Assembly (NCBI RefSeq): GCF_001735745.1 | Contig: NZ_CP017260.1 | Coordinates: forward strand, 150,001-182,000 | Direction of reading: 5' to 3' | Origin: Formosa sp. Hel1_33_131 | GTDB lineage: Bacteria > Bacteroidota > Bacteroidia > Flavobacteriales > Flavobacteriaceae | DNA length: 32,000 nucleotides | Shown: in pieces, positions 1,525 to 32,000 of the stretch | Layout of the letters: each line of letters opens with the position of its first letter | How positions within the stretch are numbered: the first letter of the stretch is position 1 | Program-made: the position numbers and the translations under genes | The notes under the pieces: generated by a model | What the model was told of the DNA's origin: nothing | Databases searched by the model: none | The model's input: only the letters and a program-made list of their open reading frames with translations

Positions 1525-3634
1525 AAAAAAAGTTCAACATATTATTTTAGAAGGAGTCAAAACCAAACCCTCAACAAAAAAATCGTTTGATACTGCCGAG
1601 ACCATCGCCGTACAATCAAATTATTCAAAAGAAGACACAGACGCTTTAGAACACCTAAATTTTGCCGCAGGAACTGCACCCTTTTTGAGAGGTCCTTACA
1701 GCACAATGTATGTGCAGCGCCCATGGACTATCAGACAATACGCTGGATTTTCGACCGCCGAAGACAGCAACGCATTCTATAAACGGAATTTAAAAGCCGG
1801 ACAAAAAGGACTGTCCGTCGCCTTTGACTTGCCCACACATCGGGGTTATGACAGTGATCATGAACGCGTTGTTGGAGATGTAGGAAAAGCCGGCGTTGCT
1901 ATAGATTCTGTCGAAGATATGAAGTTGTTATTTGATGAAATTCCTTTGGATCAAATGAGTGTATCCATGACAATGAACGGTGCCGTATTGCCAATTATGG
2001 CGTTTTATATTGTCGCGGCTCAAGAACAAGGCATAAAAATGGAGCAATTAAATGGAACGGTTCAAAATGATATTTTGAAAGAATTTATGGTGAGAAACAC
2101 CTATATCTATCCGCCTGAAGCTTCGATGAAAATTGTTTCTGACATCTTTGAGTACACCAGTAAACACATGCCAAAGTTTAACAGTATTAGTATTTCTGGA
2201 TACCATATGCAAGAAGCTGGGGCTACAGCAGACATAGAGCTAGCTTATACCTTAGCCAATGGGCTTGAATACATCCGAAAGGGATTAGATGCAGGTTTAG
2301 AAATAGACACCTTTGCCCCTCGATTGTCATTTTTTTGGGGCATTGGAATGAATCATTTTATGGAAGTTGCCAAACTTCGAGCAGCCCGTATGTTGTGGGC
2401 TAAAATTGTTCAAAAATTTAATCCTAAAAATCCAAAATCTTTAGCACTGAGAACCCATTGTCAAACCAGTGGATGGAGTTTAACAGAACAAGATCCTTTT
2501 AATAATGTTGCTCGCACCTGTATTGAAGCCACGGCCGCTATTTTTGGCGGCACTCAAAGTTTACATACAAATGCCTTGGATGAAGCGATTGCGTTGCCTA
2601 CCGATTTTTCGGCAAGAATAGCAAGAAACACCCAACTATACCTTCAAAAAGAAACTAAAATAACCAAAACGGTAGATCCTTGGGCAGGAAGTTATTATGT
2701 AGAAAAACTGACCCATGAAATTGCCGAAAAATCTTGGAGTCATATTGAAGAGGTGGAAGCCTTAGGGGGCATGACCAAAGCCATTAAATCTGGAGTTCCA
2801 AAACTTAGAATTGAAGAAGCAGCAGCACGCAAACAAGCCCGTATAGATTCTGGTCAAGATACCATCGTAGGAGTGAATAAATTCAAGCTTGAGAATGAAG
2901 ATGCGTTACATATTTTGGAAGTAGATAACGAATTGGTTCGGGCTCAACAATTAGAGCGGTTAAATCACACGAAAATTCAACGCAATTCAGAAAAAGTAAA
3001 GGTGGTTTTAGAAAAATTAACAAAAGCTGCAGCAAATGGAAGTGAAAATTTACTAGCTTTAGCGGTAGAAGCTGCCAGACATCGTGCAACACTAGGAGAA
3101 ATAAGCGACGCATTAGAGCAAGAGTTTGGGAGGTATAAAGCAGAAATTAAAACATTTTCAGGTGTGTACAGTAAAGAAATAAAAAATGATGTGTCTTTTG
3201 AAAAAGCCAAGCAATTGGCCAATCAGTTTGCAAAATCAGAAGGACGACGTCCAAGAATTATGATTGCTAAAATGGGACAAGATGGTCACGATCGCGGCGC
3301 AAAAGTGGTGGCTACTGGCTATGCCGATTTAGGTTTCGATGTTGATATTGGCCCCCTCTTTCAAACGGCAGAAGAAGCCGCGAAGCAAGCGATTGAAAAC
3401 GACGTGCATATTTTGGGTGTATCATCTTTAGCTGGCGGTCATAAAACACTCGTGCCTAAAGTTATTGAAGCCCTAAAAGCATACGGACGTGAAGATATTA
3501 TGGTGATTGTGGGTGGCGTAATTCCTAAGCAAGATTATCAATATTTGTTCGATGCTGGGACGGTTGCTGTGTTTGGACCGGGCACAAAAATTAGCGAAAC
3601 TGCCATTATAGTGTTGGATATATTAATAAATTAA
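1517..3634 (+). CDS. mutB: methylmalonyl-CoA mutase large (alpha) subunit, B12-dependent
   Basis: 705 aa. N-terminal mutase barrel motifs are present ([31 protein letters not shown]). The C-terminal cobalamin-binding domain has the DxHxxG motif ([13 protein letters not shown]) and a GG(V/I)IP segment. Confidence 0.93.
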
Positions 3635-3701
3635 TTATATTTATACGATTCTTAACCAAATCAACCGATAAGTAAGTAGCAAATGAAATCCCAAATCTCA
3701 T

Positions 3702-4793
3702 ATGTCACTATCAAAAGTCATAGCAATTGCGAACCAAAAAGGAGGTGTTGGTAAAACAACAACTGCTATTAATCTATCCTGTGCACTCGGTATCTTGGAG
3801 CAAAACGTGTTGCTTATTGATGCAGACCCGCAAGCAAATGCAACTTCTGGCTTAGGGATCATTACAAAAAATATTGAATTTTCTACAGTAAATATATTTC
3901 AAGACGATGCAAATTTGGATCGCTGCATCTTAGACACACACAGTCCAAATTTAAAGATCATCCCAGGGTCTATCAAACTTGCCGAAATTGAAATCAATGT
4001 TAAAAACCCAAATTTAAATCGATTAAAAACAGCCTTAGATGTGTTGAAAAATAAATTTGATTTCATCATTATTGATTGTTCGCCGTCATTGGGCTATCTG
4101 ACTTTAAATTCATTTGTGGCTGCGGACTCCATCATCATACCCGTACAATGTGAGTTTTATGCATTAGACGGACTGAGAAAGCTACTCTCTACAATTAAAA
4201 GTGTTAGAAAATCGTTCAATATAAACTTAACTATTGAAGGCATTTTAATGACGATGTATGACAACCGCCTAAATCATAATAGCCATATTATTAATGAATT
4301 AAAAACACATTTTGAGGATTTAATATTTAAGACAATTATTAAAAGAAACGTAAGTTTAAGCGAAGCACCTAGTTTTGGAACGAGCGTTTTTGATTATAAA
4401 ATGAATAGCGAAGGCTCTACTAACTACCTCAATCTATCCCGTGAAATTATGAAAAATCAAACTTCGAGTAAACAAAAATCTTTAGGCAAAAAGATTCCTC
4501 AAATTCTGAAAGATACTGAAGAAACTATTTTGCTTGATCCTTCCGTTAAAGAAAGAAACCTAGAAAATTATAAAACGTTTTCATTGAAAGATAAAAATTT
4601 CGATAAACTTATCGGCTGTACAAAGAAGGAAGTCATTGTCCAATTAGGACTGGTATATAATGATTTACATTCTGATATATGGATGTATCACATAACAGAT
4701 AAAGTAAGTTTGATTAAGAAAAACTATCTTTATATTTATTTTGATAAAAACAAAGTCAACCTCATTAAATTAAGACGCTTCAAATACAGTTAA
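3702..4793 (+). CDS. ParA/Soj-family ATPase paralog with a ~110-aa C-terminal extension of unknown function
   Basis: Residues 1-~250 are colinear with the adjacent canonical ParA; by eye about half the positions are identical. The deviant Walker A (NQKGGVGKTT), the LLIDADPQ segment and Walker B (IIIDCSPS) are intact. The protein then continues ~110 aa past the point where ParA ends (EIMKNQ). Confidence 0.85.
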   Translation: MSLSKVIAIANQKGGVGKTTTAINLSCALGILEQNVLLIDADPQANATSGLGIITKNIEFSTVNIFQDDANLDRCILDTHSPNLKIIPGSIKLAEIEINVKNPNLNRLKTALDVLKNKFDFIIIDCSPSLGYLTLNSFVAADSIIIPVQCEFYALDGLRKLLSTIKSVRKSFNINLTIEGILMTMYDNRLNHNSHIINELKTHFEDLIFKTIIKRNVSLSEAPSFGTSVFDYKMNSEGSTNYLNLSREIMKNQTSSKQKSLGKKIPQILKDTEETILLDPSVKERNLENYKTFSLKDKNFDKLIGCTKKEVIVQLGLVYNDLHSDIWMYHITDKVSLIKKNYLYIYFDKNKVNLIKLRRFKYS

Positions 4794-4874
4794 AAACTTG
4801 ATCAAATTCTTGAACAATTTGGTTTTTATTCCTCGTAAATAATTGTATTTTTACATAAATAAAAGAAAAAATTA

Positions 4875-5636
4875 ATGGGAAAACTCATTGCGATAGCAAA
4901 TCAAAAAGGAGGCGTTGGAAAAACCACCACTACGGTTAATCTAGCCGCTTGCTTAGGAGTTTTAGATAAAAAAGTATTATTGATCGATGCAGACCCTCAA
5001 GCGAATGCTTCTTCTGGTCTTGGAATTGATGTAGATAATGTCGCCATAGGAACGTATCAATTATTAGAACATAATTGTACGGCTGAAGAAGCCATCCAAA
5101 AGACGACTGCTACAAATGTTGATATTATTCCTGCACATATTGATTTGGTTGCCATCGAAATTGAATTGGTTAATATGGAACAACGAGAATATATGCTCAA
5201 GCAAGCCATTGAATCTGTTAAATCTAAATACGATTATATACTTATTGATTGCGCACCATCTTTAGGGCTGTTGACGCTTAATGCATTAACTGCTTCGGAC
5301 TCCGTTATCATTCCCATTCAATGCGAATATTTTGCATTAGAAGGCTTAGGTAAATTATTGAACACCATCAAAAGTGTGCAAAAAATTCATAACGAACATT
5401 TAGATATTGAAGGGTTATTACTCACAATGTATGATTCTCGATTGCGACTTTCCAACCAAGTCGTGGAAGAAGTTCAAAACCACTTTACAAACATGGTTTT
5501 TAAGACCATTATTCAGCGCAACGTACGACTCAGTGAAGCCCCAAGCCATGGTGAGAGTATAATTTATTATGATGTAAATAGTAAAGGTGCTACAAATTAC
5601 TTAAGTTTGGCTAAAGAAATCATAAGTAAACAGTAA
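4875..5636 (+). CDS. parA: chromosome partitioning ATPase ParA (Soj)
   Basis: 253 aa with KGGVGKTT, LLIDADPQANASSGLG and ILIDCAPSLG. It lies immediately upstream of parB. Confidence 0.93.
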   Translation: MGKLIAIANQKGGVGKTTTTVNLAACLGVLDKKVLLIDADPQANASSGLGIDVDNVAIGTYQLLEHNCTAEEAIQKTTATNVDIIPAHIDLVAIEIELVNMEQREYMLKQAIESVKSKYDYILIDCAPSLGLLTLNALTASDSVIIPIQCEYFALEGLGKLLNTIKSVQKIHNEHLDIEGLLLTMYDSRLRLSNQVVEEVQNHFTNMVFKTIIQRNVRLSEAPSHGESIIYYDVNSKGATNYLSLAKEIISKQ

Positions 5637-5640
5637 CATA

Positions 5641-6540
5641 ATGGCCAAAGCTTTTAAAAAACAAGCCTTAGGACGCGGACTCTCTGCTCTCTTACAAGAC
5701 CCAAAAAAGGAACCACAGACTGCTGTAAGTACAAGCAGCAGCCCTCAAGTAGGAACTATTGTTGCATTGGAATTAAACCAAATAGAAGTCAACCCGTTCC
5801 AACCCCGAACGCAATTTAAAGAAGAAGCCATCCGTGAGTTAGCTTCTTCTATTCAAGAATTAGGAGTGATTCAACCCATAACCGTTCGTAAAACCGACGC
5901 CAATACATTTCAATTGGTTTCTGGTGAACGTCGTTTTAGAGCTTCTAAATTATTAGACTTCAAAACAATTCCAGCGTATATTCGAATTGCAAATGACCAA
6001 GAAGCCTTAGAAATGGCATTGGTTGAAAACATTCAACGTCAAGATTTAGACCCTATCGAAATTGCTTTAAGCTACCAAAGATTGATCGATGACATCCAAT
6101 TGACTCAAGAACAAATGAGCCAACGTGTTGGAAAAAAACGATCTACTATTGCTAATTATTTACGATTATTAAAACTAGACCCCTTAATCCAAACAGGAAT
6201 GCGCGATGGATTTATCAGTATGGGACATGGAAGGGCCATTGTAAATATAAGTTCTCATGCAGATCAAATTGCTATTTATAAAGAAATTATTTCGAACAAA
6301 TTATCCGTTCGAGCTACCGAAACACTGGTTAAAAATTACAATACTCCCAAATCAGTAAAAACCACTAAACAGAACGAATTACCTGATTTTGTTAAAAATG
6401 GTGTTCAAAAAATAGCGTCTTATTTTGGTCATAAAATTGATGTTAAGATGGAAAAAAAAGAGAGTGGAAAAATACTGATTCCCTTTCATTCTAAAGAAGA
6501 CTATGACCGCATCTTAAAATTATTTAAAAGTGATAAATAA
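5641..6540 (+). CDS. parB: chromosome partitioning protein ParB (Spo0J)
   Basis: 299 aa with an N-terminal GRGLSALL, GERRFRAS, LVENIQRQDLDPIE and an HTH region (QEQMSQRVGKKRSTIANYLRLL). Confidence 0.93.
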   Translation: MAKAFKKQALGRGLSALLQDPKKEPQTAVSTSSSPQVGTIVALELNQIEVNPFQPRTQFKEEAIRELASSIQELGVIQPITVRKTDANTFQLVSGERRFRASKLLDFKTIPAYIRIANDQEALEMALVENIQRQDLDPIEIALSYQRLIDDIQLTQEQMSQRVGKKRSTIANYLRLLKLDPLIQTGMRDGFISMGHGRAIVNISSHADQIAIYKEIISNKLSVRATETLVKNYNTPKSVKTTKQNELPDFVKNGVQKIASYFGHKIDVKMEKKESGKILIPFHSKEDYDRILKLFKSDK

Positions 6541-7874: not shown

Positions 7875-9476
7875 ATGACTTTATCACAATGGTTTATTTT
7901 TTTCTTAGCAATTCAATTGATTCACGGATTGGGTACTTGGAAACTATACGTTAAAGCAGGTCGAAAGGCATGGGAAGCATTCGTGCCAATTTACAACGGT
8001 ATCATATTCATGAAAATACTGAACCGACCAACTTGGTGGGTTGCGTTGTTATTTTTACCTGTGATTAGTTTAATCATGTTGATTGTCATCTGGGTGGAAA
8101 CCGCACGAAGCTTTGGGAAAAACACGACAACAGACACTATTTTATCCATCGTTACTTTAGGGTTTTATAGTTATTATTTAAACTATTTCACAGATATAAA
8201 ACATATAAATGAAAGAAGTTTGACTCCTAAATCCGGTTTGGGAGAATGGACGAGCTCCATACTGTTTGCAGTGGTGGCTGCGACTATTGTGCATACGTAT
8301 TTTTTACAACCGTATGTCATTCCATCTTCATCATTAGAGAAATCATTATTGGTGGGTGATTTTTTAATTGTGAGTAAAATGCACTATGGTCCTCGAGTAC
8401 CGATGACCACTATTGGACTTCCGATGGTACATGATACGATTCCTGTGTTGAATAAAAAGTCCTATTTATTTAGTGATAAAATTGACGAGCAAAACACTTC
8501 TTTAAAAAGTAGATTTCAACTCCCCTATTTACGAATTCCAGGGTGGGAAAAAATTGAGCGAAATGAAATTGTTGTTTTCAATCAACCGGCAGATACATTG
8601 CTGGATATGAATGACTTTAGACCAGATAGAAATTACTACAAACCCATTGATAAAAAGACCAATTTGGTAAAACGCTGTGTGGCGATTGCTGGGGATACCC
8701 TCGAAATCAGAGATGGATATGTATATATCAACGGTATTCAAAACGAACTTCCTGACCGCGCAAAATTGCAGTTTAGTTATGAAGTGACATTAAAACCTGG
8801 GAAAACGTTTGCAAACAGCATCATAGAACAGTTAAAAACACGCTATGACATTACCGATGGTATCTATGCGATGGGGAATAAAATCATCATTCCAGCAGCA
8901 TCAGATGACGCCGTTAAAGTGTTCAAAAACCACCCGAGTGTCGCATCAATCACACGCTTTATAGAACCAAAAGGAAAAGCAGACACTGGCTTGTTCCCTC
9001 AAGATCCAAGTTATGAATGGAACCGTGATTTTTATGGTCCACTCTATATTCCCGAAGAAGGAAAAACAATGGAGCTTACTTTAAAAAATCTACCTGTTTA
9101 CAAACGTCTCCTCACAGAATACGAAGGAAATACAGTCTCTACAAAAGGCAATCAGATTTTTATAAACGGACAACTTTCTAATTCATATACCTTCAAACAA
9201 AACTACTATTGGATGATGGGTGACAATCGTCACAATTCCATTGACGCCCGTGCTTGGGGGTTTGTACCTTTTAACCACGTTGTAGGAAAACCTGTGTTTA
9301 TTTGGATGAGTTGGAATACCAATGGAAAAGGCTTCAATAAGATACGTTGGGATCGGCTGTTCTCAACCGTTCATGCTGATGGAGAACGCACTTCTTACTT
9401 TATTCCCTTCTTATTCTTATTAGCAGGATGGATTGGATACAGTAAATGGCGTAAAAGAAAAAATACAACGGTCTAA
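7875..9476 (+). CDS. lepB: signal peptidase I (long flavobacterial form with an N-terminal multi-TM extension)
   Basis: S26 boxes are present: the catalytic Ser region IPSSSLEKSLLVGDF, the Lys box LVKRCVAIAGD, and GDNRHNSIDARAWGFVP. About 140 N-terminal residues form extra TM helices. Confidence 0.88.
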   Translation: MTLSQWFIFFLAIQLIHGLGTWKLYVKAGRKAWEAFVPIYNGIIFMKILNRPTWWVALLFLPVISLIMLIVIWVETARSFGKNTTTDTILSIVTLGFYSYYLNYFTDIKHINERSLTPKSGLGEWTSSILFAVVAATIVHTYFLQPYVIPSSSLEKSLLVGDFLIVSKMHYGPRVPMTTIGLPMVHDTIPVLNKKSYLFSDKIDEQNTSLKSRFQLPYLRIPGWEKIERNEIVVFNQPADTLLDMNDFRPDRNYYKPIDKKTNLVKRCVAIAGDTLEIRDGYVYINGIQNELPDRAKLQFSYEVTLKPGKTFANSIIEQLKTRYDITDGIYAMGNKIIIPAASDDAVKVFKNHPSVASITRFIEPKGKADTGLFPQDPSYEWNRDFYGPLYIPEEGKTMELTLKNLPVYKRLLTEYEGNTVSTKGNQIFINGQLSNSYTFKQNYYWMMGDNRHNSIDARAWGFVPFNHVVGKPVFIWMSWNTNGKGFNKIRWDRLFSTVHADGERTSYFIPFLFLLAGWIGYSKWRKRKNTTV

Positions 9477-9485
9477 TACATTTGA

Positions 9486-10100
9486 ATGGTGCTTCTTTAT
9501 CCAGCGTATTTCCCAAACATTGCTTCTTATATAGTGATGGCACAATCAGACGAACTCGTATTTGAAATATGCGATTCTTATCAGAAACAAACCTATAGAA
9601 ACCGATGTTATATTTATGGTGCAAATGGAAAACTGAGTCTTAATATCCCTGTTCAATATTCTCAGAAAAACAGACAGAACACGGAAGAAATAGAGATTGA
9701 CAACACTTCTAAATGGCAATCCATACATTGGAAATCTATTGAGAGTGCGTATAAAACCTCTCCTTTTTTTGAATTTTATGAGGATGAATTTAAAGAGCTA
9801 TTTAACACACCAAAGGAGTTTCTTTTAGATTTCAATTTAGAATGCATTGCTGTCATTAATAGCTGTTTGGGTTTGGACCCTGTTGTATCCAATTCTGATC
9901 AGTTTTTAAAAACCAATACAGAATCAGACTATCGGTTTTTAGTGAACGCGCGAAAAGAATCTAAAATTGACACGACCACTTATATTCAAGTCTTTCAAGA
10001 GAAACATGGATTTATAAACAATTTGAGCATCTTAGATTTGTTATTCAACGAAGGCCCCAACGCTTTGAGTTATTTAAAAAATCATCCGATCACTTTTTAG
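9486..10100 (+). CDS. WbqC-family protein
   Basis: 204 aa. The N-terminus (LYPAYFPNIASY...DSYQKQTYRNRCYIYGANGKLSLNIPV) matches the WbqC-like signature as I remember it. Confidence 0.75.
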   Translation: MVLLYPAYFPNIASYIVMAQSDELVFEICDSYQKQTYRNRCYIYGANGKLSLNIPVQYSQKNRQNTEEIEIDNTSKWQSIHWKSIESAYKTSPFFEFYEDEFKELFNTPKEFLLDFNLECIAVINSCLGLDPVVSNSDQFLKTNTESDYRFLVNARKESKIDTTTYIQVFQEKHGFINNLSILDLLFNEGPNALSYLKNHPITF

Positions 10101-22221: not shown

Positions 22222-23682
22222 TTATACTTTTGGAATCTCTTTTAAAATCTCTAAAACAAAGACCCAAAATTTCTGAACAGAAGAAATCTGAGCGCGTTCA
22301 TCAGGAGAATGCGCCCCTCTGATATTCGGTCCAAAACTGATCATTTCCATATCGGGATAATTCGTTCCTAAAAGACCGCATTCTAAACCGGCATGACAGG
22401 CCGCTACATGTGGTTTTTCGTTGTATAGTTTTTCGTATAAAGATCTCAATACTTTCAAAATAGATGAATCCATATCGGGTTCCCAACCTGGGTAATCCCC
22501 TGAAAGCTCTACCTCGCAGCCAATAAGCTCAAAGGTTGCACGCAACATCATTGCTAAATCCATTTTAGAGGATTCCACAGAAGAACGTGTGAGGCAGCCT
22601 ATTTTGACATTTCCTCCTTTGATAATGACACGGGCAATATTATTAGATGTTTCTACCAATTCAGGAATGTCGGGACTCATGCGGTACACGCCATTCCACG
22701 CAGCATAAATAGCCCTTGTTAACCCTTCTTGAACACCCAAGTCCATCATCACTTTTGGCGTGTCAATTTTAGTAAACTCAACCGTTAAATCTGGTTCCAT
22801 TGTTTTGAGTTCTGTCTGAATCGCTTCAACTTGTAGGCCCATTTCGTACTTAAAAGCATCTTCTTGTACTAGGTCTATCGACACAATTGCTTTGCTCTCC
22901 CTAGGAATCGCGTTGCGTAAACTTCCACCATCAATTTCAGATATTCGCAATCCGAAATTTTCAAAGGCATCAAATAACAAACGGTTCATTATTTTATTGG
23001 CATTCCCAAACCCTTTATGAATATCCATCCCTGAATGTCCCCCTTGCAATCCTTTAACTTCTATGGAATAGCCTATTTTGGTTTCAGGAGTTGGTTCTTC
23101 GTTATACGTCCCTACGGCGGTGACATCAATGCCTCCGGCACAGCCCACGCCAATTTCGTCATCATCTTCGGTATCTAGGTTTAAAAGAATTTCTCCTTTT
23201 AACAAGCCTCCTTTTAGACCCATCGCACCTGTCATGCCAGTTTCTTCATCAATCGTAAACAAGGCTTCAATAGCAGGGTGTGGAATGTCGGTACTTTCTA
23301 AAATTGCCATAATGGTTGCGACGCCTAAGCCGTTATCGGCTCCTAGAGTCGTTCCATTTGCTTTGACCCAATCCCCATCAACAATCATCTCAATACCTTG
23401 GGTTAAAAAATCAAAATCAGTATCACTGTTTTTCTGATGTACCATATCTAAATGTGATTGCATGACAATGGCTTTTCGGTCTTCCATGCCTGCTGTGGCT
23501 GGTTTTTTGATGATCACATTCCCTACCGTATCTTCTACGGTTTCAAGGTTTAGATTTTTCCCAAAATCTTTCATAAATGCAATGACGCGTTCTTCTTTTT
23601 TAGAAGGACGGGGCACGGCATTCAAATCTGCAAATTTGTTCCAAACTGCTTTGGGTTCCAGTTTACGAATGTCTTGGCTCAT
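22222..23682 (-). CDS. pepD: aminoacyl-histidine dipeptidase (M20C, PepD)
   Basis: From the ATG at 23682 the protein is 486 aa, the usual PepD length, and starts MSQDIRKLEPKAVWNKFADLNAVPRPSKKEE. M20 metal-binding motifs are present (HLDMV, GADNG, DEETGM). The longer track ORF would run into the divergent gene and through the promoter box. Confidence 0.9.
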   Translation of the reverse strand: MSQDIRKLEPKAVWNKFADLNAVPRPSKKEERVIAFMKDFGKNLNLETVEDTVGNVIIKKPATAGMEDRKAIVMQSHLDMVHQKNSDTDFDFLTQGIEMIVDGDWVKANGTTLGADNGLGVATIMAILESTDIPHPAIEALFTIDEETGMTGAMGLKGGLLKGEILLNLDTEDDDEIGVGCAGGIDVTAVGTYNEEPTPETKIGYSIEVKGLQGGHSGMDIHKGFGNANKIMNRLLFDAFENFGLRISEIDGGSLRNAIPRESKAIVSIDLVQEDAFKYEMGLQVEAIQTELKTMEPDLTVEFTKIDTPKVMMDLGVQEGLTRAIYAAWNGVYRMSPDIPELVETSNNIARVIIKGGNVKIGCLTRSSVESSKMDLAMMLRATFELIGCEVELSGDYPGWEPDMDSSILKVLRSLYEKLYNEKPHVAACHAGLECGLLGTNYPDMEMISFGPNIRGAHSPDERAQISSVQKFWVFVLEILKEIPKV

Positions 23683-23705
23683 AATAGATATATTTTTTTG
23701 TTGCA

Positions 23706-23713
23706 CAAAGGTA
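23706..23713 (-). promoter_or_regulatory. '-7' box TACCTTTG for pepD
   Basis: Exact TAnnTTTG match on the minus strand, 23 nt upstream of the ATG at 23682. Confidence 0.4.
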
Positions 23714-23745
23714 CGGATTCCTTCCCGATCATAAATTAAAATTAT

Positions 23746-23753
23746 TACTTTTG
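23746..23753 (+). promoter_or_regulatory. '-7' box TACTTTTG for the DUF3810 gene
   Basis: Exact TAnnTTTG match that ends 4 nt before the ATG at 23758 (1 nt before the GTG at 23755). Confidence 0.35.
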
Positions 23754-23757
23754 AGTG

Positions 23758-24816
23758 ATGTCTAAAAAAGGGAAAATCATTCTTGCGTTGAGTTTGCTGC
23801 CTCAATACTTTCTTCTAAAAGTAGCGAAGCAGTATCCTGAATTTATCGAGGCCTATTATAGTATGGGTATTTTTCCTGCACTCTCAAAACTACTAAACAC
23901 AGCTTTTAAATGGATTCCCTTTTCTGTGGGCGATCTGTTGTACATCGCCTTGATTGTTTATGTGATTCGTTGGGCGATTGTCAATTGGAAACGTCTCAGA
24001 ACAGATCCCAAAGCGTGGGGTTTGGATGTGTTATCTTTTGTGTCCCTTCTCTATTTCATGTTTCATTTGTGTTGGGGGTTTAATTATTACCGAGTGCCTT
24101 TACATACGACACTCAATTTAAATCCAAAATATACCACGGCTCAATTAAAATCGGTTACCAACCAACTGGTTTTAAAAACGAATGCACTGCACTTTGCGAT
24201 CACACAAGATTCTTTATTAAAAACGACCCTCCCCTATGCATTTTCTGAACTGACTGAAATCAGTCAAACGGGTTATTCTCAATTAGAAAAGGTGTATCCA
24301 AATTTTAAACACGACGGCAAAAACAGTAAGAAATCACTATTTAGTACGCCCTTGACGTATATGGGGTTTAGTGGCTATGTGAACCCATTGACGCTAGAAG
24401 CGCACATCAATGCTGTAATGCCTGCCAATTCTATGCCGACTACGATTGCGCACGAACAAGCGCATCAGTTGGGCTATGCGGCAGAGAACGAAGCTAATTT
24501 TATTGGATTTTTGGCGAGCATCCATAATGAAGACCCCTATTTCAACTATGCAGGTTATAAATTTGCGTTGCGCTATTGTTTAATAGAATTATCTAAAAGG
24601 GATCCGGATGCCTACGACTCTGTTTTATGCACGATCAACCCTGGTATCTTAGAAGATTATCAGGAAGCGTTTGACTTCTGGAGTGCTTATAACAACCCTC
24701 TGGAACCTATTTTCAAAAAGTTTTACAGCCATTTCTTAAAGGCAAACAACCAAGTCAAAGGCATTGAGAGTTATAGCTATGTGGTGGCGCTTTTGGTGGA
24801 TTATTTGGAGGATTAA
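23758..24816 (+). CDS. DUF3810-family membrane protein with an HExxH zinc-metalloprotease motif
   Basis: About 352 aa with N-terminal TM helices and TIAHEQAHQLGYAAENEANF (HExxH plus a downstream E). The start is either the ATG at 23758 or the GTG at 23755 used by the track. Confidence 0.75.
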   Translation: MSKKGKIILALSLLPQYFLLKVAKQYPEFIEAYYSMGIFPALSKLLNTAFKWIPFSVGDLLYIALIVYVIRWAIVNWKRLRTDPKAWGLDVLSFVSLLYFMFHLCWGFNYYRVPLHTTLNLNPKYTTAQLKSVTNQLVLKTNALHFAITQDSLLKTTLPYAFSELTEISQTGYSQLEKVYPNFKHDGKNSKKSLFSTPLTYMGFSGYVNPLTLEAHINAVMPANSMPTTIAHEQAHQLGYAAENEANFIGFLASIHNEDPYFNYAGYKFALRYCLIELSKRDPDAYDSVLCTINPGILEDYQEAFDFWSAYNNPLEPIFKKFYSHFLKANNQVKGIESYSYVVALLVDYLED

Positions 24817-24918: not shown

Positions 24919-25800
24919 TTACTCACAACTTTCATAGAGAGCGTCAAGCTCTTCGTCACTGTTAGCAGTTTGTTGAGAACCATCTTCAAACTCTACTGTA
25001 ATTGGGTAAGAAATTATGAAAGAATCTTGTTCTGTAAGCTGACTTAAAAACTCCATAAGTCCATCGTAACCATTAAAGGTTTCTACAGTTCCGTTGCCTG
25101 AAACCAAAGAGAATGGAAATACAATTTCAAAACATTGCTCTTCACAGTCATCACAATCTTCAATGTCATAACAATCGTTATAAAGTGTATCAAATTCTTG
25201 AGGACTGTTTACAGTTGCCTGAGTTCCATCCGTTAAAGTCACTGAGATTGGATATACAAATCCTACAAATTCAAAATTATACAAATCTTGTTCAGAATTT
25301 ACAACGACTTCATTTCCGTCATAATCAAGAGCGGTTAGAGGGTAATTCAGTTCAAAACATTCATCGTTATAATCATCATCGTCGTCATGATCAAAATCAT
25401 AACAATCATCTAATAACATTTCTAACTCTTCGTACGAAGAAATGGTTTGCTGAGTTCCGTCCGACATGGTAACATCAAAAGGCACTTCAATATAAACTTC
25501 TGATTCATTTGTTAAGTTTTCTAAGAAAGCTTCTACATCTTCATCACTATTGAAGGTCGTACTGGTTTCTCCATCGGAAACAGTGTAAGGATAGTTGATG
25601 ATAAAACACTCTCCTTCTTCAACATAATCAGATTCTTGGTTTGAAGTTGTAGCTGTTCTGGCGCTATTAAATAAGTTTGTCATTAATTCAGTAGAAACAC
25701 CTTCTTCAATCTCTTCAGCTATAACCTCTTCATTATTGTCTTTGCTACAAGCACTAAATAGAAGCAAAAAAACAAGTGATAATTTTAATAAATATTTCAT
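24919..25800 (-). CDS. hyper-acidic cysteine-framed repeat lipoprotein, paralog 1 (unknown family)
   Basis: 293 aa with a signal peptide and lipobox (LFSAC), then SKDNNEE. By my count the mature part has 32 D and 40 E versus 1 K and 1 R. Three modules are bounded by Cys residues: C65-C133, C148-C210 and C223-C292. Confidence 0.8.
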   Translation of the reverse strand: MKYLLKLSLVFLLLFSACSKDNNEEVIAEEIEEGVSTELMTNLFNSARTATTSNQESDYVEEGECFIINYPYTVSDGETSTTFNSDEDVEAFLENLTNESEVYIEVPFDVTMSDGTQQTISSYEELEMLLDDCYDFDHDDDDDYNDECFELNYPLTALDYDGNEVVVNSEQDLYNFEFVGFVYPISVTLTDGTQATVNSPQEFDTLYNDCYDIEDCDDCEEQCFEIVFPFSLVSGNGTVETFNGYDGLMEFLSQLTEQDSFIISYPITVEFEDGSQQTANSDEELDALYESCE

Positions 25801-25905
25801 TCTTAAAAGTTTATGGTTAATTAATTTTTAATAATCAGCAATTTAATAAATATTTAATTGTAAGACACACATAATAAAAAAAATGATTTTTATGTTTCAC
25901 TTAAC

Positions 25906-25936
25906 AAAAATAGCTTGGATCAAATGATCCAAGCTA
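25906..25936 (-). terminator. rho-independent terminator of acidic lipoprotein gene 2
   Basis: Perfect 11-bp stem TAGCTTGGATC / GATCCAAGCTA (25911-25921 / 25926-25936) with a 4-nt loop. It is flanked by A5 (U5 on the minus strand) and T4. It is homologous to the terminator at 24857-24890. Confidence 0.75.
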
Positions 25937-25968
25937 TTTTATGAAATTAAATATACTTGCCAATATTT

Positions 25969-26835
25969 TTACTCACAATCCTCATATAAAGCAACAAGTT
26001 CTTCATCACTATTAACTGATTGCTGAGATCCATCTTCAAACTCCACTGTAATAGGATAAGAAATCACAAACGTATCATCCTCAGTAAGACCGCTTAAAAA
26101 GTCCCAAAGATCATCGTAATCATTTATGGTTTCTAAATTACCATCATTTACAACAAAAGAGAATGGGAATACGATTTCAAAACATACATAATCACAGTCA
26201 TCACAATCTTCGATGCCATAACAGTCATTATAAAGAGCGTCAAAGTCTTGGGAGTTGTTTACAGTCACTTGAGTTCCATCTGTTAAAGTTACAGAAATAG
26301 GATATACAAATCCTGTAAACTCAAAAGAAAATAATTCTTGTTCAGAATTAACAGTCACTTCATTTCCATCAGAATCATGAGCTGTTAGGGGAAAATCCAG
26401 TTCAAAACATGAATCAGAAGGACCTTGGTCACCACCATAACATGAATCTATTAACATAAAAAACTCATCGAAAGTCGTAATGGTTTGTTGAGTGCCATCA
26501 GCTAAAGTAACATCAAAAGGGACCTCAATAGAGATTGCTGAATTTCCTGTTAAACTTGATAAATAAGCTTCTAATTCTTCATCACTATTAACCGTTGTAC
26601 TCGTTTGTCCATCCGAAATAGAGTAAGGATAGTTGATGACAAAACACTCTCCGTCTTCCAGATAATCAGATTCTTGATTCGAAGTTCTAGCACTGAACGC
26701 ACTATTTGTTAAGTTTGTAATTAATTCCGTAGAAACACCTTCCTCTTTAACTTCTGGTGTGATCTCGTCGTTGTCTTTGCTACATGAACTTAATATCAAC
26801 AAAAAAACAAGTGATAATTTTAATAAATTTTTCAT
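25969..26835 (-). CDS. hyper-acidic cysteine-framed repeat lipoprotein, paralog 2 (unknown family)
   Basis: 288 aa with lipobox LSSC, then SKDNDE. It is about 70% identical to paralog 1 by eye, and all 8 mature Cys align. It has the same three-module layout. Confidence 0.8.
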   Translation of the reverse strand: MKNLLKLSLVFLLILSSCSKDNDEITPEVKEEGVSTELITNLTNSAFSARTSNQESDYLEDGECFVINYPYSISDGQTSTTVNSDEELEAYLSSLTGNSAISIEVPFDVTLADGTQQTITTFDEFFMLIDSCYGGDQGPSDSCFELDFPLTAHDSDGNEVTVNSEQELFSFEFTGFVYPISVTLTDGTQVTVNNSQDFDALYNDCYGIEDCDDCDYVCFEIVFPFSFVVNDGNLETINDYDDLWDFLSGLTEDDTFVISYPITVEFEDGSQQSVNSDEELVALYEDCE

Positions 26836-26985
26836 ATTTAATAATTTAGGTTTAAATAGTTTGTGTGCAACTTAATACACCGTTATGAATTATAAACAAC
26901 CAAATTAGGAACAACCCTACTTTATTTTAAAATTATTTTATAAAATACTATTAAACAGTATTTTACTTGCTAAATATTTTTTGTT

Positions 26986-26993
26986 TAATTTTG
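26986..26993 (+). promoter_or_regulatory. '-7' box TAATTTTG upstream of the ECF sigma gene
   Basis: Exact TAnnTTTG match, 28 nt upstream of the ATG at 27022. Confidence 0.35.
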
Positions 26994-27021
26994 GTTTTTA
27001 ATTTAGTACCGCCAAATTGAA

Positions 27022-27534
27022 ATGACAAAAAACAACAAATCGGTCTGTGAATCGAAACATTTTGAGATGCTCTTCAATACGCATTCAACGCTTTTAAGAA
27101 ACTATATTTATTACAAATGTGGCGATTTTAATTTAGCGGAAGATATGGTACAGGAAGCCTTTATAAGTTTATGGAATCACTGTGAAAAAGTTAATTATGA
27201 CGAAGCCTTATTTTATCTAAAAAGGATTGCTAATAATAATTTTTTGAATACTGTAAAACATCAAAAAGTAGTGTTAAACTATAGTAAGTTTAAAGGATCT
27301 GAAGTGAATAATGAAAGTCCCGAATTTATATATGAAGAAAAAGAATTTATGAAAAAACTTCAAGATGCGATTGCTATTTTACCAGAAAAACAAAGAGAAG
27401 TGTTTTTGTTAAATAGGATTGATAAAATGACCTATAAAGAAATCGCAGCATTGCTGAATTTATCTGTAAAAGCGGTTGAGAAAAGGATGCATAATGCATT
27501 AGTTGTCTTGAGAGAAAAAATAGGAAATATTTAA
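27022..27534 (+). CDS. ECF-type RNA polymerase sigma-70 factor
   Basis: 170 aa with region 2 (AEDMVQEAFISLWN) and a region 4 HTH (LPEKQREVFLLNRIDKMTYKEIAALLNLSVKAVEKRMHNAL). Confidence 0.88.
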   Translation: MTKNNKSVCESKHFEMLFNTHSTLLRNYIYYKCGDFNLAEDMVQEAFISLWNHCEKVNYDEALFYLKRIANNNFLNTVKHQKVVLNYSKFKGSEVNNESPEFIYEEKEFMKKLQDAIAILPEKQREVFLLNRIDKMTYKEIAALLNLSVKAVEKRMHNALVVLREKIGNI

Positions 27535-27584
27535 AAAGTAGGGTGTTCAGCTAAACAGTTGTTTATAATACAGTAACGACATTT

Positions 27585-28490
27585 ATGGAAACTAGAAATA
27601 AAGATACATTGTTAGCCAGATGGTTAACTGATGATTTAACATCTAAAGAAGCTCAGGACTTTAAAGCCTCTGAAGCCTATCATTCTTATGAAAAGATATC
27701 AACCTATGCGAATCATCTAGAAACGCCTCCCTATGATAAAGCGAAAGCTTGGAAGGCTGTTTCAAATCAAACAGTCGATAAAGCTAAAGTAAGACCCTTG
27801 TATTACAATTGGGCGACAGGAATCGCAGCGTCTATCGTATTGCTTTTTGGTATGTTTTATGGTTTAAATACAGGTACTACCACACATCAGTCTGATTATG
27901 GTACGCAATTATCAGTGGTGCTTCCAGATGGGTCTGAAGCCATTTTAAATGCCAATTCAAAAATTGAATTCAATACAACAGATTGGAAGAATGAAAACAG
28001 AACTTTAGAATTGGATGGTGAAGCTTATTTTAAAGTTAAAAAAGGCTCCCTATTTACTGTAAAAACTTCAAAAGGAAACGTAGCCGTTTTAGGAACTCAA
28101 TTTAACGTAAATAGTGATGCTAATTCCCTTGAAGTTAAATGTTATACAGGAAAAGTAAGGGTTTCTGATGCTACAAACACCGCTGTTTTAACCTCCGGAA
28201 ACGCCTATAGAATTATTGATGCTTCTGAAGAGAAGTGGACTTTTAAAACTACAGACCGTTCTTGGCTAAACCACGAAAGCACTTTTTACAATGCGCCTCT
28301 ATCTAGCGTATTTACAAGCTTAGAAAATCAATTTGAGATTACGATAAAAAACAAAAACAACTATTTAAACCAACGGTTTACAGGAAGTTTTATTAATGAT
28401 GATAAAAACTTAGCGTTAAAAACAGTCCTTGAAGCAATGAATATTGGTTACGTTTTTAATAAAAACAACGTTATTCTTGCCGTGTATTAA
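27585..28490 (+). CDS. FecR-family anti-sigma factor / transmembrane sensor
   Basis: 301 aa. A short cytoplasmic N-terminus is followed by one TM helix (GIAASIVLLFGMFYGL). The periplasmic FecR-type domain has LPDGSEAILNANSKIEF, LDGEAYFKV and VLGTQFNV. It follows the ECF sigma gene. Confidence 0.88.
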   Translation: METRNKDTLLARWLTDDLTSKEAQDFKASEAYHSYEKISTYANHLETPPYDKAKAWKAVSNQTVDKAKVRPLYYNWATGIAASIVLLFGMFYGLNTGTTTHQSDYGTQLSVVLPDGSEAILNANSKIEFNTTDWKNENRTLELDGEAYFKVKKGSLFTVKTSKGNVAVLGTQFNVNSDANSLEVKCYTGKVRVSDATNTAVLTSGNAYRIIDASEEKWTFKTTDRSWLNHESTFYNAPLSSVFTSLENQFEITIKNKNNYLNQRFTGSFINDDKNLALKTVLEAMNIGYVFNKNNVILAVY

Positions 28491-31067
28491 ATGAAACAAT
28501 ATCTATTTTTTTTAGTATTTATTTTTGTTTTCAACAACTTACCCGCACAGGAAAATTTAAATCAAAAGTACACAAATCAACCATTAGAAATGGTTCTAAA
28601 CAGGCTTCAAAAACAGTTTGAAGCGCGGTTTTCATATCCATCAAAATTAATTGAAAACGAAAAAGTTACAATCACGATTGACTCCACATCACTCGTTCGT
28701 AATTTAAATAGTATTGAATCACAAACGGCTCTTATATTTCAGGAGATTGGTGTTAATAATTTTATCTTAAAAACAACACAAACCCAACAACAATTCAGTA
28801 TTTGCGGATATATTTTTGATGCTAAAAACAGATTGCCAATAACAGATGTTACAATAGCTCCCCTCAAAAGAACTAAAAATTATACTTCTCAAACGAATGG
28901 CTATTTTGAGTTATTTAATTTAAAAAATACAACTCGAATTAAATTCCAACGATTGGGCTACAAAACACTTGTCCTAAGTGTTTCAGAATTTAAAAAGAAC
29001 TGTAAAGAAATCTTCCTAACAGAAAAAGCCATCACACTGAATGAAGTGACTATTCAAAATTATCTAACCACAGGATTTACAAAAAACAAGGATGGGTCTA
29101 TAAATGTGAAGCCAAGGAAAACCCAAATTCTACCAGGGTTGATTGAGGCCGATGTTTTACAAAGTGCGCAACTTATTCCCGGGATCCAAAGTCCCGACGA
29201 AACCGCAACAGGATTGAATATTAGAGGTAGTACTCCAGATCAAAACCTCATTGTTTTTGATGGCATTAAAATATACCATTACGATCATTTTTTTGGAATG
29301 CTTTCAGCTTTTAACACCAACATCATAGACGATGTGGTAATCTTTAAAAACGCAAGTCCTTCAAAATATAGAAGTCATCTTTCAGGTGTGATTGACATAA
29401 GAACAGACACCACGATTCCAAAAAAAATAAAAGGAGGTGTCGGAATAAATATGATTTACACCAATGCTTTTTTAAAAATACCTGTGAGTAAAAAACTTGG
29501 AATTCAAATGTCGGCAAGACGCTCTTTTTCAGATGCTTTAAAAACTATTACTTTTGACAGCTATTCAGATTATGTCTTTCAAAATACAAAAATAACAGAT
29601 CAAAATGCAGTATTTGACACGGAACAATCTAAAAAAAACAACACCTATTATTTTGAAGATTATACCTTATCAGGCCTATTTAAACTTTCTCCAAAAAGTG
29701 AACTAAAATTTAGCTCCATCTACTCCAATAATAATTTGAATTTTAAATCTCAATTTAAAGAAATCAATCAATTTACCATAGACCAATTAACTATTGAAAA
29801 TTTAGGCCTCAATATAAATTACACGACAAATTGGACTGAAAAATTCAAATCAAAACTATCTGCAAGTTTTTCAAGTTATGATTTTAGTTATAGTGGCGAA
29901 GAACTCTTGGATGCATTTTTTAGTTATGAAACGGTTAAGAAAAATAAAACAAATGACACAAACCTATCATTAGATGTAGATTATAAATTTAATAAGAACC
30001 ATTCGATCATGACCGGTTACGATCTTATCATCAATGATATTAGCTACACAATTGGCCGTCTCTCAGATGTTATTTTTGATGATGATTATACCTTAGAATC
30101 TCTGAATAGCAAAAACTACACACATTCCTTGTTTAATGAATATCGTTTTAAAAACAAGCAATTTTCAATACATACAGGGTTACGGACTACGTATTTCTCC
30201 ACTTTGAAAACCATTTATTTTCAACCAAATTTAAATGCAAACCTAAGCATCAATAACAATCTTAGTGTACAGTTGTCTTTAGAGAAAACAAATCAATTTG
30301 TAAGTCAGATCGTTGAATTTGAAACACAAAATTTTGGTTTAGAAAATCAAGTTTGGGCATTGTCCAATAGCTCCGAAATTCCTGTTTTAGAAAACAAACA
30401 AGCCTCGGTTTCTGCCATCTTTAAAAAACATGATTGGTACATAGATGTTGCTGCATATATCAAACAAAGTAACGGAATCACCTCTTTAACAAAAGGATTT
30501 AACAGAGAAGTTGCTGATTTTTCTACAGGGAAAAGCGAAACAAAAGGATTCGAGTTAATGGTTAAAAAAGAGTTGAATAATTTTTCTACACTCGTAAGCT
30601 ACGCACTCACAGATAATACGTTTCAATTTAAAGATTTAAATAGCGGTGCTGATTTTCAAGGGAATTTTGACATCAGACAGTATTTAACAATTGTACAAAC
30701 CTTCAAATTAAATGATTTAGAATTTTCAGCTGGTTGGCGATTTAAAACTCCAAGACCCTATACGCCCGCACTGGGCTTGATTGGTGACAATGCTGATAAT
30801 ATTCAGATTAATTATGGCGATATTAACAGTGCGCGACTGGACAACTACAACCGATTTGATGTATCCTCATCCTATAAGTTTAAAATTTCTAAAACACTCG
30901 AGAGTACTATCGGAGTTTCTTTGCTAAATGTGTTTAATAAAAGCAATAATATTTCTAGGTATCACAGAATTATACTGGATATAGACAGTGCTTCTTTTAA
31001 ATTAAGAGAACTTAATAAATTTTCAATCGCAAGAACTCTAAACATGAGTTTTCAGCTAAAATTTTAA
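28491..31067 (+). CDS. TonB-dependent receptor/transducer with N-terminal STN signalling domain and carboxypeptidase-regulatory-like domain
   Basis: 858 aa. A signal peptide is followed by an STN-like segment (PLEMVLNRLQKQFEARFSYPSKL...ALIFQEIGVNNFILK). A CarboxypepD_reg-like segment comes next (ICGYIFDAKNRLPITDVTI...NGYFEL). Plug motifs are present (NIRGSTPDQNLIVFDGIKIY). The barrel ends with an aromatic residue (QLKF). The start abuts the FecR stop (TAAATG). Confidence 0.88.
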   Translation: MKQYLFFLVFIFVFNNLPAQENLNQKYTNQPLEMVLNRLQKQFEARFSYPSKLIENEKVTITIDSTSLVRNLNSIESQTALIFQEIGVNNFILKTTQTQQQFSICGYIFDAKNRLPITDVTIAPLKRTKNYTSQTNGYFELFNLKNTTRIKFQRLGYKTLVLSVSEFKKNCKEIFLTEKAITLNEVTIQNYLTTGFTKNKDGSINVKPRKTQILPGLIEADVLQSAQLIPGIQSPDETATGLNIRGSTPDQNLIVFDGIKIYHYDHFFGMLSAFNTNIIDDVVIFKNASPSKYRSHLSGVIDIRTDTTIPKKIKGGVGINMIYTNAFLKIPVSKKLGIQMSARRSFSDALKTITFDSYSDYVFQNTKITDQNAVFDTEQSKKNNTYYFEDYTLSGLFKLSPKSELKFSSIYSNNNLNFKSQFKEINQFTIDQLTIENLGLNINYTTNWTEKFKSKLSASFSSYDFSYSGEELLDAFFSYETVKKNKTNDTNLSLDVDYKFNKNHSIMTGYDLIINDISYTIGRLSDVIFDDDYTLESLNSKNYTHSLFNEYRFKNKQFSIHTGLRTTYFSTLKTIYFQPNLNANLSINNNLSVQLSLEKTNQFVSQIVEFETQNFGLENQVWALSNSSEIPVLENKQASVSAIFKKHDWYIDVAAYIKQSNGITSLTKGFNREVADFSTGKSETKGFELMVKKELNNFSTLVSYALTDNTFQFKDLNSGADFQGNFDIRQYLTIVQTFKLNDLEFSAGWRFKTPRPYTPALGLIGDNADNIQINYGDINSARLDNYNRFDVSSSYKFKISKTLESTIGVSLLNVFNKSNNISRYHRIILDIDSASFKLRELNKFSIARTLNMSFQLKF

Positions 31068-31305
31068 GACACCCCTTGCAGCTTGATGTTGTTAAAAACA
31101 CTCATTTATTTGGCTATCCCTATTTTTTTTTATAATTTTATCACTGATTCAGACCCAAGTCTAAATCTTCAGAAGCGATCTAACCAGTCGTAAGATATTA
31201 TTTTTACTATTAGTAACATTGAATGCATCCCTGTGCGCGTCCATTATTGGAGACTATCAGAGTTGGGTGTCAATGTGTAGTTATAAATAATTTAAAACAA
31301 GAACA

Positions 31306-31815
31306 ATGATTAAAAAAATGATTTTAGTATGTGTAATCACATTAACGTTTAACGGGCTCTCAGCTCAAGAAAATATTGTAAAAGCCTCAGGAATTGTTGG
31401 AAATGCTGGTGTTCAATTTGAACGCTCCCTTTCTAACCATTTTTCAATAATTGGACAAGTGGGGATTTCATCAATTACAACAACAGTAAATTCTAACAAC
31501 TCAAAATCTAATGGATTTGGATTTTATGTTGAAGGCAGGTATTACTTTTCTTCTAATAAAGATTTAATGGAAGGATGGCATATAGGACCGTATTACAATA
31601 GCTTCATGACAAAAGATGATAAGGATTTAAAAACTAACATATCCTCTTTTGGATTGGGTACAGGGTATCAATGGGTTTTTGATTCTAAAGTTACTCTGGG
31701 AATTGTATTCGGTGGAGGAAGTTTAAATATTGATAGTGATATACCCGAAATTGAATTTTTAGAAATTTTTGGATTTCTACCACATTTGGGATTGTCGTTG
31801 GGGTATAATTTTTAA
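31306..31815 (+). CDS. small outer-membrane beta-barrel protein (possibly DUF3575-like)
   Basis: 169 aa with a signal peptide (FNGLSAQ). It has an alternating hydrophobic beta-strand pattern with Gly/aromatic girdles and a C-terminal LGYNF-type OMP terminus. Confidence 0.65.
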   Translation: MIKKMILVCVITLTFNGLSAQENIVKASGIVGNAGVQFERSLSNHFSIIGQVGISSITTTVNSNNSKSNGFGFYVEGRYYFSSNKDLMEGWHIGPYYNSFMTKDDKDLKTNISSFGLGTGYQWVFDSKVTLGIVFGGGSLNIDSDIPEIEFLEIFGFLPHLGLSLGYNF

Positions 31816-31875
31816 GGTGAATTTAAACCCAAAACGTCATTGCATTTAGTGTGCATTTGTGATAAATTATTCTAT

Positions 31876-32000
31876 ATGAAAAGAGTACTATTAATAATTG
31901 TATTTTTAATAAGTCCAATTAGTAATGCACAAAAAATTAAAACAATTTTATTTTATAAAAGTGGAGATTCTATTGAAGGATTTTCAAGGGGCGTTAAATA
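31876..32000 (+). CDS. hypothetical secreted protein, 3'-truncated by the window edge
   Basis: An ATG at 31876 opens MKRVLLIIVFLISPISNAQKIKTILFYKSGDSIEGFSRGVK..., which is open to the window end and has a clear signal peptide. Confidence 0.45.
   Translation, partial: MKRVLLIIVFLISPISNAQKIKTILFYKSGDSIEGFSRGVK

Follow-up and report, generated by a model that had tools for sequence, protein, structure and literature searches.

The window analysed here is a stretch of 32,000 nucleotides from Formosa sp. Hel1_33_131 (contig NZ_CP017260.1, positions 150,001 to 182,000 of the forward strand). It contains two adjoining minus-strand open reading frames (ORFs) for hyper-acidic lipoproteins, p1 (24919..25800, 293 aa) and p2 (25969..26835, 288 aa), and, divergent from p2 on the plus strand, a trio of genes. 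The trio consists of a 170-aa sigma factor of the extracytoplasmic function (ECF) type (27022..27534; Pfam Sigma70_r2 and Sigma70_r4_2, TIGR02985-like, TIGR02937), a FecR-type transmembrane anti-sigma factor of 301 aa (27585..28490; Pfam FecR and FecR_C) and a TonB-dependent receptor/transducer (TBDR) of 858 aa with an N-terminal extension (28491..31067; Pfam CarbopepD_reg_2 and Plug). We show that p1 and p2 belong to a large uncharacterised Bacteroidota lipoprotein family, built of Cys-framed, internally duplicated, acidic modules of about 72 aa, and that the most informative feature of this family is its synteny and promoter link to the ECF sigma, FecR and TBDR genes at 27022-31067.

The two ORFs had been described in an earlier note made from the sequence of the window, and both were reproduced at the same lengths. 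Global alignment of p1 and p2 gives 69% identity (202/293), where about 70% had been estimated by eye. The note had seen a single indel, in the linker between modules 1 and 2; that indel is confirmed, and a single-residue gap in the N-terminal linker has to be added, with no other gap. The ratio of nonsynonymous to synonymous substitutions (dN/dS) is 0.25 between p1 and p2 and 0.18-0.21 against orthologs, which indicates that both are real genes under purifying selection. Mature p1 contains 32 Asp, 40 Glu, 1 Lys and 1 Arg, exactly as counted before, and has a net charge of -70. Mature p2, which had been called similar, contains 33 Asp, 28 Glu, 2 Lys and 1 Arg and has a net charge of -58. The charge per residue is -0.23 for p1 and -0.19 for p2, and it ranges from -0.056 to +0.042 among the other 27 ORFs of the window; p1 and p2 are the extreme charge outliers of the window.

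Each protein has nine Cys, at positions 18/65/133/148/210/216/219/223/292 in p1 and 18/64/132/143/205/211/214/218/287 in p2, and all nine, including the lipid Cys, are aligned between the paralogs, so that the positional conservation claimed for the mature Cys holds. Three modules of 65-72 aa follow one another in each protein. A hidden Markov model (HMM) of the module places those of p1 at C65-C133 (25402-25608), C148-C210 (25171-25359) and C223-C292 (24925-25134), which are the coordinates given in the earlier note, and those of p2 at C64-C132 (26440-26646), C143-C205 (26221-26409) and C218-C287 (25975-26184), all on the minus strand. Residues C210-C223 of p1 (window 25135-25173) hold four Cys in 14 residues, C-Y-D-I-E-D-C-D-D-C-E-E-Q-C, and the counterpart in p2 is C205-C218. 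The C-D-D-C reported between modules 2 and 3 is C216/C219 of p1. The three-module clade has C216 without exception and C219 at a conservation of at least 90%; distant family members lack equivalents of both. The CxxC might form a small disulfide loop or provide a metal site of thiolates. A 119-aa His/Asn/Gln-rich ORF runs antisense to p1 (25113..25472, plus strand). Its 'homologs' occur only where p1 orthologs occur; the ORF itself is an artefact that arises opposite the GAT/GAA-rich coding strand of the D/E-rich p1.

Both proteins begin with a K-rich n-region and a hydrophobic core followed by a lipobox, F-S-A-C in p1, with Phe at -3 as a mild deviation, and L-S-S-C in p2; this agrees with the lipoprotein signal peptides read earlier. 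The standard lipobox is [LVI][ASTVI][GAS]-C. Across the family it was called by a regular expression only, and a lipobox-like pattern is found in 186/229 members. After the lipid Cys of these 186 proteins, position +3 is Lys in 106 (57%), +4 is D/E in 163 (88%) and +5 is D/E in 30%. The optimal lipoprotein export signal (LES) of Capnocytophaga is C-X-K-(D/E)2-X, and the LES consensus of F. johnsoniae, SDDFE, tolerates a non-acidic +5 (PMC5080379). The N-termini LFSAC-SKDNNEE of p1 and ILSSC-SKDNDE of p2, in which a resemblance to the K-(D/E)2 signal had been pointed out, match it in part, with Lys at +3, Asp at +4 and Asn in place of D/E at +5. The +3 Lys is the sole Lys of mature p1. That it is kept in a protein otherwise excluding basic residues suggests selection on the export signal. 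Judged from its N-terminus, p2 is probably exposed on the cell surface.

The module HMM, which has 72 positions and was built from the six modules of the window, recovered 813 modules in 232 proteins, with one to eight modules per protein and three most often. A word-indexed search gave 85 clusters, all of them unnamed or 'hypothetical'. In an exhaustive phmmer search, 1009 cluster representatives passed E<=1e-3 and 376 also passed E<=1e-10, each representing a cluster at 50% identity, with as many as seven matched stretches in one protein. The family comes overwhelmingly from marine samples and metagenome-assembled genomes (MAGs). Columns Cys2, Pro8, Pro45 and Cys71 are about 100% conserved in the 779 full modules. 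Both framing Cys are present in 774 of these, neither in two and only one in three, and the framing Cys are invariant in 39 diverse homologs (alignment A1). Conservation of the framing Cys in orthologs, on which the idea of a disulfide frame depended, is confirmed by these counts. A disulfide pair would give this pattern of joint retention or loss, and the framing Cys of p1 and p2 may be bonded in this way. One motif, [FY]-P-h-x-V-x(2-3)-D-G-x(3)-T-h-N-S-x-E-E-L, recurs in the two halves of the module. R48, the sole Arg of mature p1, belongs to an N-terminal helix, 'NSARTA', that is conserved. The mean net charge across the family is -0.20 per residue, the median K+R content is 1.4%, and D/E reach at least 30% in 22/72 module columns. 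Acidity is a family trait.

The earlier note had found no family that it could recognise, and profile searches bear this out, as there is no confident match to any characterised domain family. No model of Pfam or NCBIfam scored above its cut-off for p1, p2 or 64 isolated modules. DUF6561 (E 2e-3), Phage Collar (2e-4), PepSY_MTB, lipo_LytA and the N-terminus of the BT0360 arabinanase were rejected as matches below cut-off to short acidic stretches or to the signal peptide. RibLong, from the Ca2+-binding repeat families, was rejected at 15-17 bits against a cut-off of 27 and a coverage of about 17 residues. PB1 (PF00564) reached 13.4 bits against a cut-off of 23.6; 7/64 modules match it weakly (best module E 1e-4), and a few homologs carry precomputed PF00564 tags. 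These matches are explained by the half-repeat, Y-P-x-x-V-x-x-E-D-G-x(5)-N-S-D-E-E-L, which resembles the acidic beta-beta-alpha OPCA motif of PB1. This likeness stems from convergence or composition, and the predicted topology of the module differs from the ubiquitin-like beta-grasp fold, so that PB1 was rejected as well. For a SusD/RagB-like identity, no SusD-like match in Pfam or NCBIfam was obtained for p1 or p2 even at E<=10.

Structure prediction gave a confident fold. In the AlphaFold2 model of the full chain, the modules have a predicted local distance difference test score (pLDDT) of 80-93, and residues 1-63 and the linkers are disordered. A single module was modelled with a pLDDT of 91.5 and a predicted template modelling score (pTM) of 0.67 as beta-beta-beta-alpha, twice. 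The two half-repeats per module that had been read from the sequence correspond to these two half-units, and beta-beta-beta-alpha repeats also speak against the helical/TPR domain of SusD/RagB-like proteins. Foldseek returned nothing credible against the PDB for the whole chain (best E 0.059) or for a single module (best E 0.16, template modelling score at most 0.43), nor against BFVD (best E 0.21). A sequence-profile search of the PDB gave no credible match either: its only hits, to designed repeat proteins and to 30 residues of M. jannaschii TyrRS (E~1e-3), were rejected as compositional.

Linkage of the family to the trio was examined in other genomes. The genome scan was seeded with a tighter alignment, A2, the 39-sequence A1 being too divergent as a seed, and yielded 26 loci (compared loci are numbered L001 onwards). 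The trio lies immediately beside the lipoprotein gene in 20/26, in Kordia, Aquimarina, Lacinutrix, Maribacter and Bacteroidota MAGs. In these linked loci the sigma factor is 49-68%, FecR 37-50% and the TBDR 29-50% identical to the window protein. The linkage extends even to Maribacter, whose two-module lipoprotein is no more than 29-31% identical. In addition, eight distant family members of two to five modules (E 1e-7 to 1e-36) were looked up. The trio adjoins five of them, one has the sigma gene only, and two are unlinked, one of these at a contig end; one unlinked member adjoins an RHS-like protein. The trio of the window has the gene content of FecIRA-type systems, that is, an ECF sigma factor, a FecR domain and a TBDR together, and overall it adjoins the lipoprotein gene in 25/34 independent loci.

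The order of the genes varies. The lipoprotein gene is divergent from the trio in the window, Kordia, Maribacter, L033, L034 and L036; the order is lipoprotein, sigma, FecR, TBDR, all co-directional, in Aquimarina (L012 and L013), and sigma, FecR, TBDR, lipoprotein in L031. The genes common to loci of different genera are the lipoprotein, sigma, FecR and TBDR genes only. Other neighbours, including the DUF3575 gene downstream in the window, are not conserved with this four-gene unit across the compared loci. In the distant clade of L033, L036 and L037, ffh (SRP54) and folD always lie downstream of the lipoprotein gene, which marks a chromosomal position conserved in that clade and unrelated to the context in the window. 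The N-terminal extension of the window TBDR is about 100 residues long and has a weak FecR_C-like match (residues 28-86, E 4e-4, below cut-off), which recurs in L033; there is no STN match in Pfam. The TBDR as a whole has no NCBIfam match, no PDB sequence match and no Pfam beta-barrel domain, and appears to be a divergent, uncharacterised receptor subfamily. Conserved adjacency of this kind is consistent with a physical partnership between the lipoprotein and the TBDR.

The second link is a shared promoter motif. Alignment of the intergenic regions revealed AAGGTAGGGT-N13-GTTGT(C/T)TATAAT some 50-70 nt upstream of the start codon of the lipoprotein gene, with a spacer that is not conserved. 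In the window, a predicted ECF-type promoter of p2, GTAGGGT-N13-GTTGTTTATAAT, lies at 26889..26921 on the minus strand (core 26896-26919) and ends 53 nt upstream of the ATG of p2. The predicted promoter of fecR-TBDR, also GTAGGGT-N13-GTTGTTTATAAT, lies at 27538..27569 on the plus strand (core 27539-27562), in the 50-nt gap between the sigma stop and the fecR start. In the whole 32 kb of the window there are exactly two occurrences of the core GTAGGGT-N13-GTTGTyT, where 0.12 would be expected; two were reached in none of 100 shuffles. Across genera, the motif sits upstream of the lipoprotein gene and of fecR in nearly all linked loci. Furthermore, the -10 variant is the same at both sites within a genome: GTTGTCT in Kordia, GTTGTT in Maribacter and GTGTTAT in L036. 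In L037, four unrelated genes (2363-6258), including that for formate-tetrahydrofolate ligase, split sigma from fecR, and both motif sites are kept. The conserved sites and the co-varying -10 suggest that a single ECF sigma factor is dedicated to the two promoters; the simplest candidate is the adjacent one, which we infer to recognise the motif. In the Aquimarina loci L012 (9948) and L013 (9881), the motif was found only upstream of the lipoprotein gene. Since the genes there are co-directional and the motif is single, the sigma-dependent promoter may also drive the sigma gene itself (autoregulation).

The sigma gene of the window seems to be transcribed differently. TAnnTTTG is the -7 box of Bacteroidota housekeeping promoters. 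A match to it, TAATTTTG, lies at 26986..26993 on the plus strand, 29 nt upstream of the sigma ATG, and an equivalent box is conserved in position in all other divergent loci. This suggests that sigma is transcribed constitutively and is controlled post-translationally by FecR.

The two lipoprotein genes differ in their history. Homologs linked to sigma in other genera are consistently closer to p2 than to p1, and p2 has the intact promoter; this indicates that p2 is the ancestral regulated copy and p1 a tandem duplicate derived from it. A hairpin resembling an intrinsic terminator follows p2 (25905..25940, minus strand; stem AAAATAGCTTGGAT / ATCCAAGCTATTTT, 14 bp and a T-run). As read from the sequence, this putative terminator, which is present also in L005 and L006, splits p2 and p1 into two transcription units. 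Upstream of p1 there is a -10-like remnant, GTGTCTTACAAT (25857..25868, minus strand), and the GTAGGGT -35 element is absent. The idea that p1 carries the ECF-type promoter was therefore rejected, and the site looks like what decay has left of the duplicated promoter. In L005, the p1 ortholog has retained GTTGTCTGTAAT, and its -35 has decayed.

In Formosa-like relatives, the p1 ortholog adjoins the same DUF3810 and M20 genes as in the window and the trio is absent. Upstream of the p1 ortholog in L001-L003 and L006 there is a 3' remnant of p2 comprising the C-terminal module (L001 7655-7876, L006 9464-9757), 89-90% identical to p2 in L001-L003 and 68% in L006. We read this remnant as a deletion scar, which means that p2 and the trio were deleted in the related genomes and p1 was kept. 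G+C is 0.30-0.33 in window 25001-32000, which holds p1, p2, sigma, FecR, TBDR and DUF3575, and 0.33-0.40, mostly 0.36-0.40, in window 1-25000. With this low G+C, and with p2 and the trio lacking in close relatives, the block from p1 to DUF3575 may be a variable or acquired region. Two observations concern the neighbouring genes. In L001, a YoeB/YefM toxin-antitoxin pair (9062-9570) lies between the p1 ortholog and DUF3810 and is absent from the window. In the window, the M20 dipeptidase ORF (22222-23805, minus strand), with a TTG start, overlaps the DUF3810 gene (23755-24816, plus strand); the gene probably begins at the ATG of ORF 22222-23682, for a product of 486 aa, which is the start called in L001.

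It is known already that a Bacteroidota TBDR can have a lipoprotein partner under the control of an ECF sigma factor and an anti-sigma factor. SusD/RagB with SusC/RagA, BtuG with BtuB, HmuY with HmuR and XusB with XusA likewise combine a lipoprotein with an LES-like N-terminus and an adjacent TBDR, apparently co-regulated, and in L031 the lipoprotein gene directly follows the receptor gene, as susD follows susC. The family of p1 and p2 has no sequence or fold similarity to SusD, BtuG, HmuY or XusB, and unlike them it is small, repeat-built, Cys-framed and hyper-acidic, with a variable number of modules. Moreover, in contrast to the genes of SusD-type partners, its gene is usually divergent from sigma and not downstream of the receptor. 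The FecI/FecR/FecA systems, which include E. coli ferric citrate uptake, Pseudomonas siderophore uptake and Bacteroides ECF/SusC-like systems, have the same ECF sigma factor, FecR anti-sigma factor and N-terminally extended TBDR, and the receptor operon of the window is likewise preceded by a predicted bipartite sigma-type promoter. The window regulon differs from them in an added acidic lipoprotein with its own copy of the promoter, in a predicted sigma-dependent promoter that precedes fecR-TBDR, in the lack of a detected Fur-like operator and in an unclassified receptor subfamily. Calsequestrin is a high-capacity polyanionic cation-binding protein. p1 and p2 share with it an extreme negative charge (-58 to -70 in about 270 residues) spread over the surface, a likeness of composition only, whereas their fold, origin and location are unrelated. 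In the literature searched, we found no work on acidic lipoproteins tied to TonB-dependent systems of Flavobacteriia, nor anything relevant on the ECF sigma/FecR systems of this group. Neither the partner family nor its module, promoter or extreme composition is described in Pfam, NCBIfam, the PDB or this literature.

We propose that the family is a dedicated accessory component of an ECF sigma/FecR/TBDR signalling unit, a surface polyanion that captures a cationic ligand for the receptor, and we give this proposal about half of our confidence. p2 is probably the sigma-dependent partner of the TBDR. The sigma gene would be transcribed from its housekeeping promoter, and FecR would keep the sigma factor inactive until the receptor binds its ligand. 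The released sigma factor would then transcribe from the two GTAGGGT-N13-GTTGTyT promoters, that of fecR-TBDR and that of the lipoprotein gene. The lipoprotein would be lipidated and probably flipped to the cell surface via its C-S-K-D LES-like signal, where a disordered tether of about 45 residues would present a disulfide-stabilised polyanionic array of modules beside the receptor. The modules would capture or concentrate the cationic ligand, for which a metal cation or a species that is polycationic or contains metal is most likely, and pass it to the receptor. The surface exposure, disulfides and cation binding of p1 and p2 that this scheme includes are what we infer from their sequences, and for the capture of a cationic ligand the pointer is composition.

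Several observations weigh against this proposal. The +5 residue in C-S-K-D-N-N-E of p1 and C-S-K-D-N-D-E of p2 departs from the LES. In a few family members the acidity is much weaker, the net charge per residue being as low as -0.008. What is conserved in the module (F, Y-P, D-G, N-S-x-E-E-L) belongs to the core and the turns and looks structural, with core residues, the D-G turn and a helix N-cap; no discrete metal site is visible, because the acidity lies on variable surface positions. In seawater, the polyanion would be largely saturated by Mg2+ and Ca2+, which disfavours simple trace-metal capture. A Fur box or iron operator between the divergent genes was rejected: TGATAATCA-like strings were noticed by eye, and an unbiased k-mer search gave only A/T-rich words. 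With no Fur-box-like element found by that search, a link to iron is unsupported. Finally, intact p1 orthologs are present in six Formosa-like genomes with no trio within 10 kb, and their persistence shows that the lipoprotein can be kept without an adjacent receptor.

This last point leads to the view that the family is a general surface polyanion, an output of the sigma regulon and not a partner in transport, which might serve as a Ca2+/Mg2+-binding layer, as a mineral or particle adhesin, or as a shield or decoy against cationic antimicrobials. Indeed, the extreme charge is diffusely distributed and no pocket is conserved, the number of modules ranges from one to eight as in adhesin-like arrays, and two distant members are unlinked, including the one beside an RHS-like protein. 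We nevertheless consider this view unlikely, because adjacency to the receptor operon survives three gene orders across genera and because a promoter shared with fecR-TBDR is typical of a functional partner and not of a generic envelope protein. The same co-regulation with fecR, together with the imperfect LES, would also suit an outer-membrane lipoprotein that faces the periplasm and modulates signalling by binding either FecR, at its periplasmic C-terminal domain, or the TBDR, at its N-terminal extension, as an anti-anti-sigma factor or in feedback; basic surfaces of FecR_C or of an STN-like domain could partner a polyanion. Such a role seems quite improbable to us, as Lys at +3 and D/E at +4, conserved in proteins that avoid Lys, point to selection for surface export, and an extracellular protein would account for the pairs of framing Cys and for arrays of several modules on a long disordered tether.

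Secreted proteins of marine and halophilic organisms tend to be acidic. The acidity could accordingly be mainly an effect of habitat, with the modules acting as a structural spacer or as a binder of a non-cationic ligand, and the overwhelmingly marine origin of the family and its few far less acidic members agree with this. Against it, p1 and p2 exceed each of the other 27 ORFs in the window, exported ones included, four- to five-fold in negative charge per residue, and the near-total exclusion of K/R (median 1.4%) exceeds compositional drift, so that of these alternatives it is the one in which we have least faith. Returning to a surface polyanion that captures a cationic ligand for the receptor, a bolder version of it can be formulated, although we regard it as doubtful. 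The family would be a class, not recognised before, of high-capacity polyanionic 'cation sponges' made of protein on the surface of marine Bacteroidota. The sponges would collect Fe(III) or other trace-metal species, possibly colloidal or mineral-bound, and feed them to a dedicated TonB-dependent transducer that induces more sponge via its ECF sigma factor. If true, this would be metal foraging by a module that amplifies itself, a strategy different from those based on siderophores, hemophores or SusD-type proteins.

Bacteroidota take up nutrients mainly by TonB-dependent receptors paired with surface lipoproteins, and marine Flavobacteriia have a key part in degradation in the ocean. For a family of at least 1000 clusters at 50% identity there are now a definition of the domain, a fold modelled with confidence, a rule of genomic context and a candidate for the sigma-dependent promoter. 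Cultured carriers in which the system is testable include Kordia algicida OT-1 and Kordia aestuariivivens YSTF-M3, an Aquimarina sp. and, from Maribacter, M. litoralis and M. orientalis DSM 16471. If it is true that the polyanion captures a metal or another cationic nutrient for a TonB-dependent transporter, this would be a new uptake strategy; otherwise, the family would still be a new regulon member of a very common and poorly understood class of Bacteroidota sigma/anti-sigma/receptor systems.

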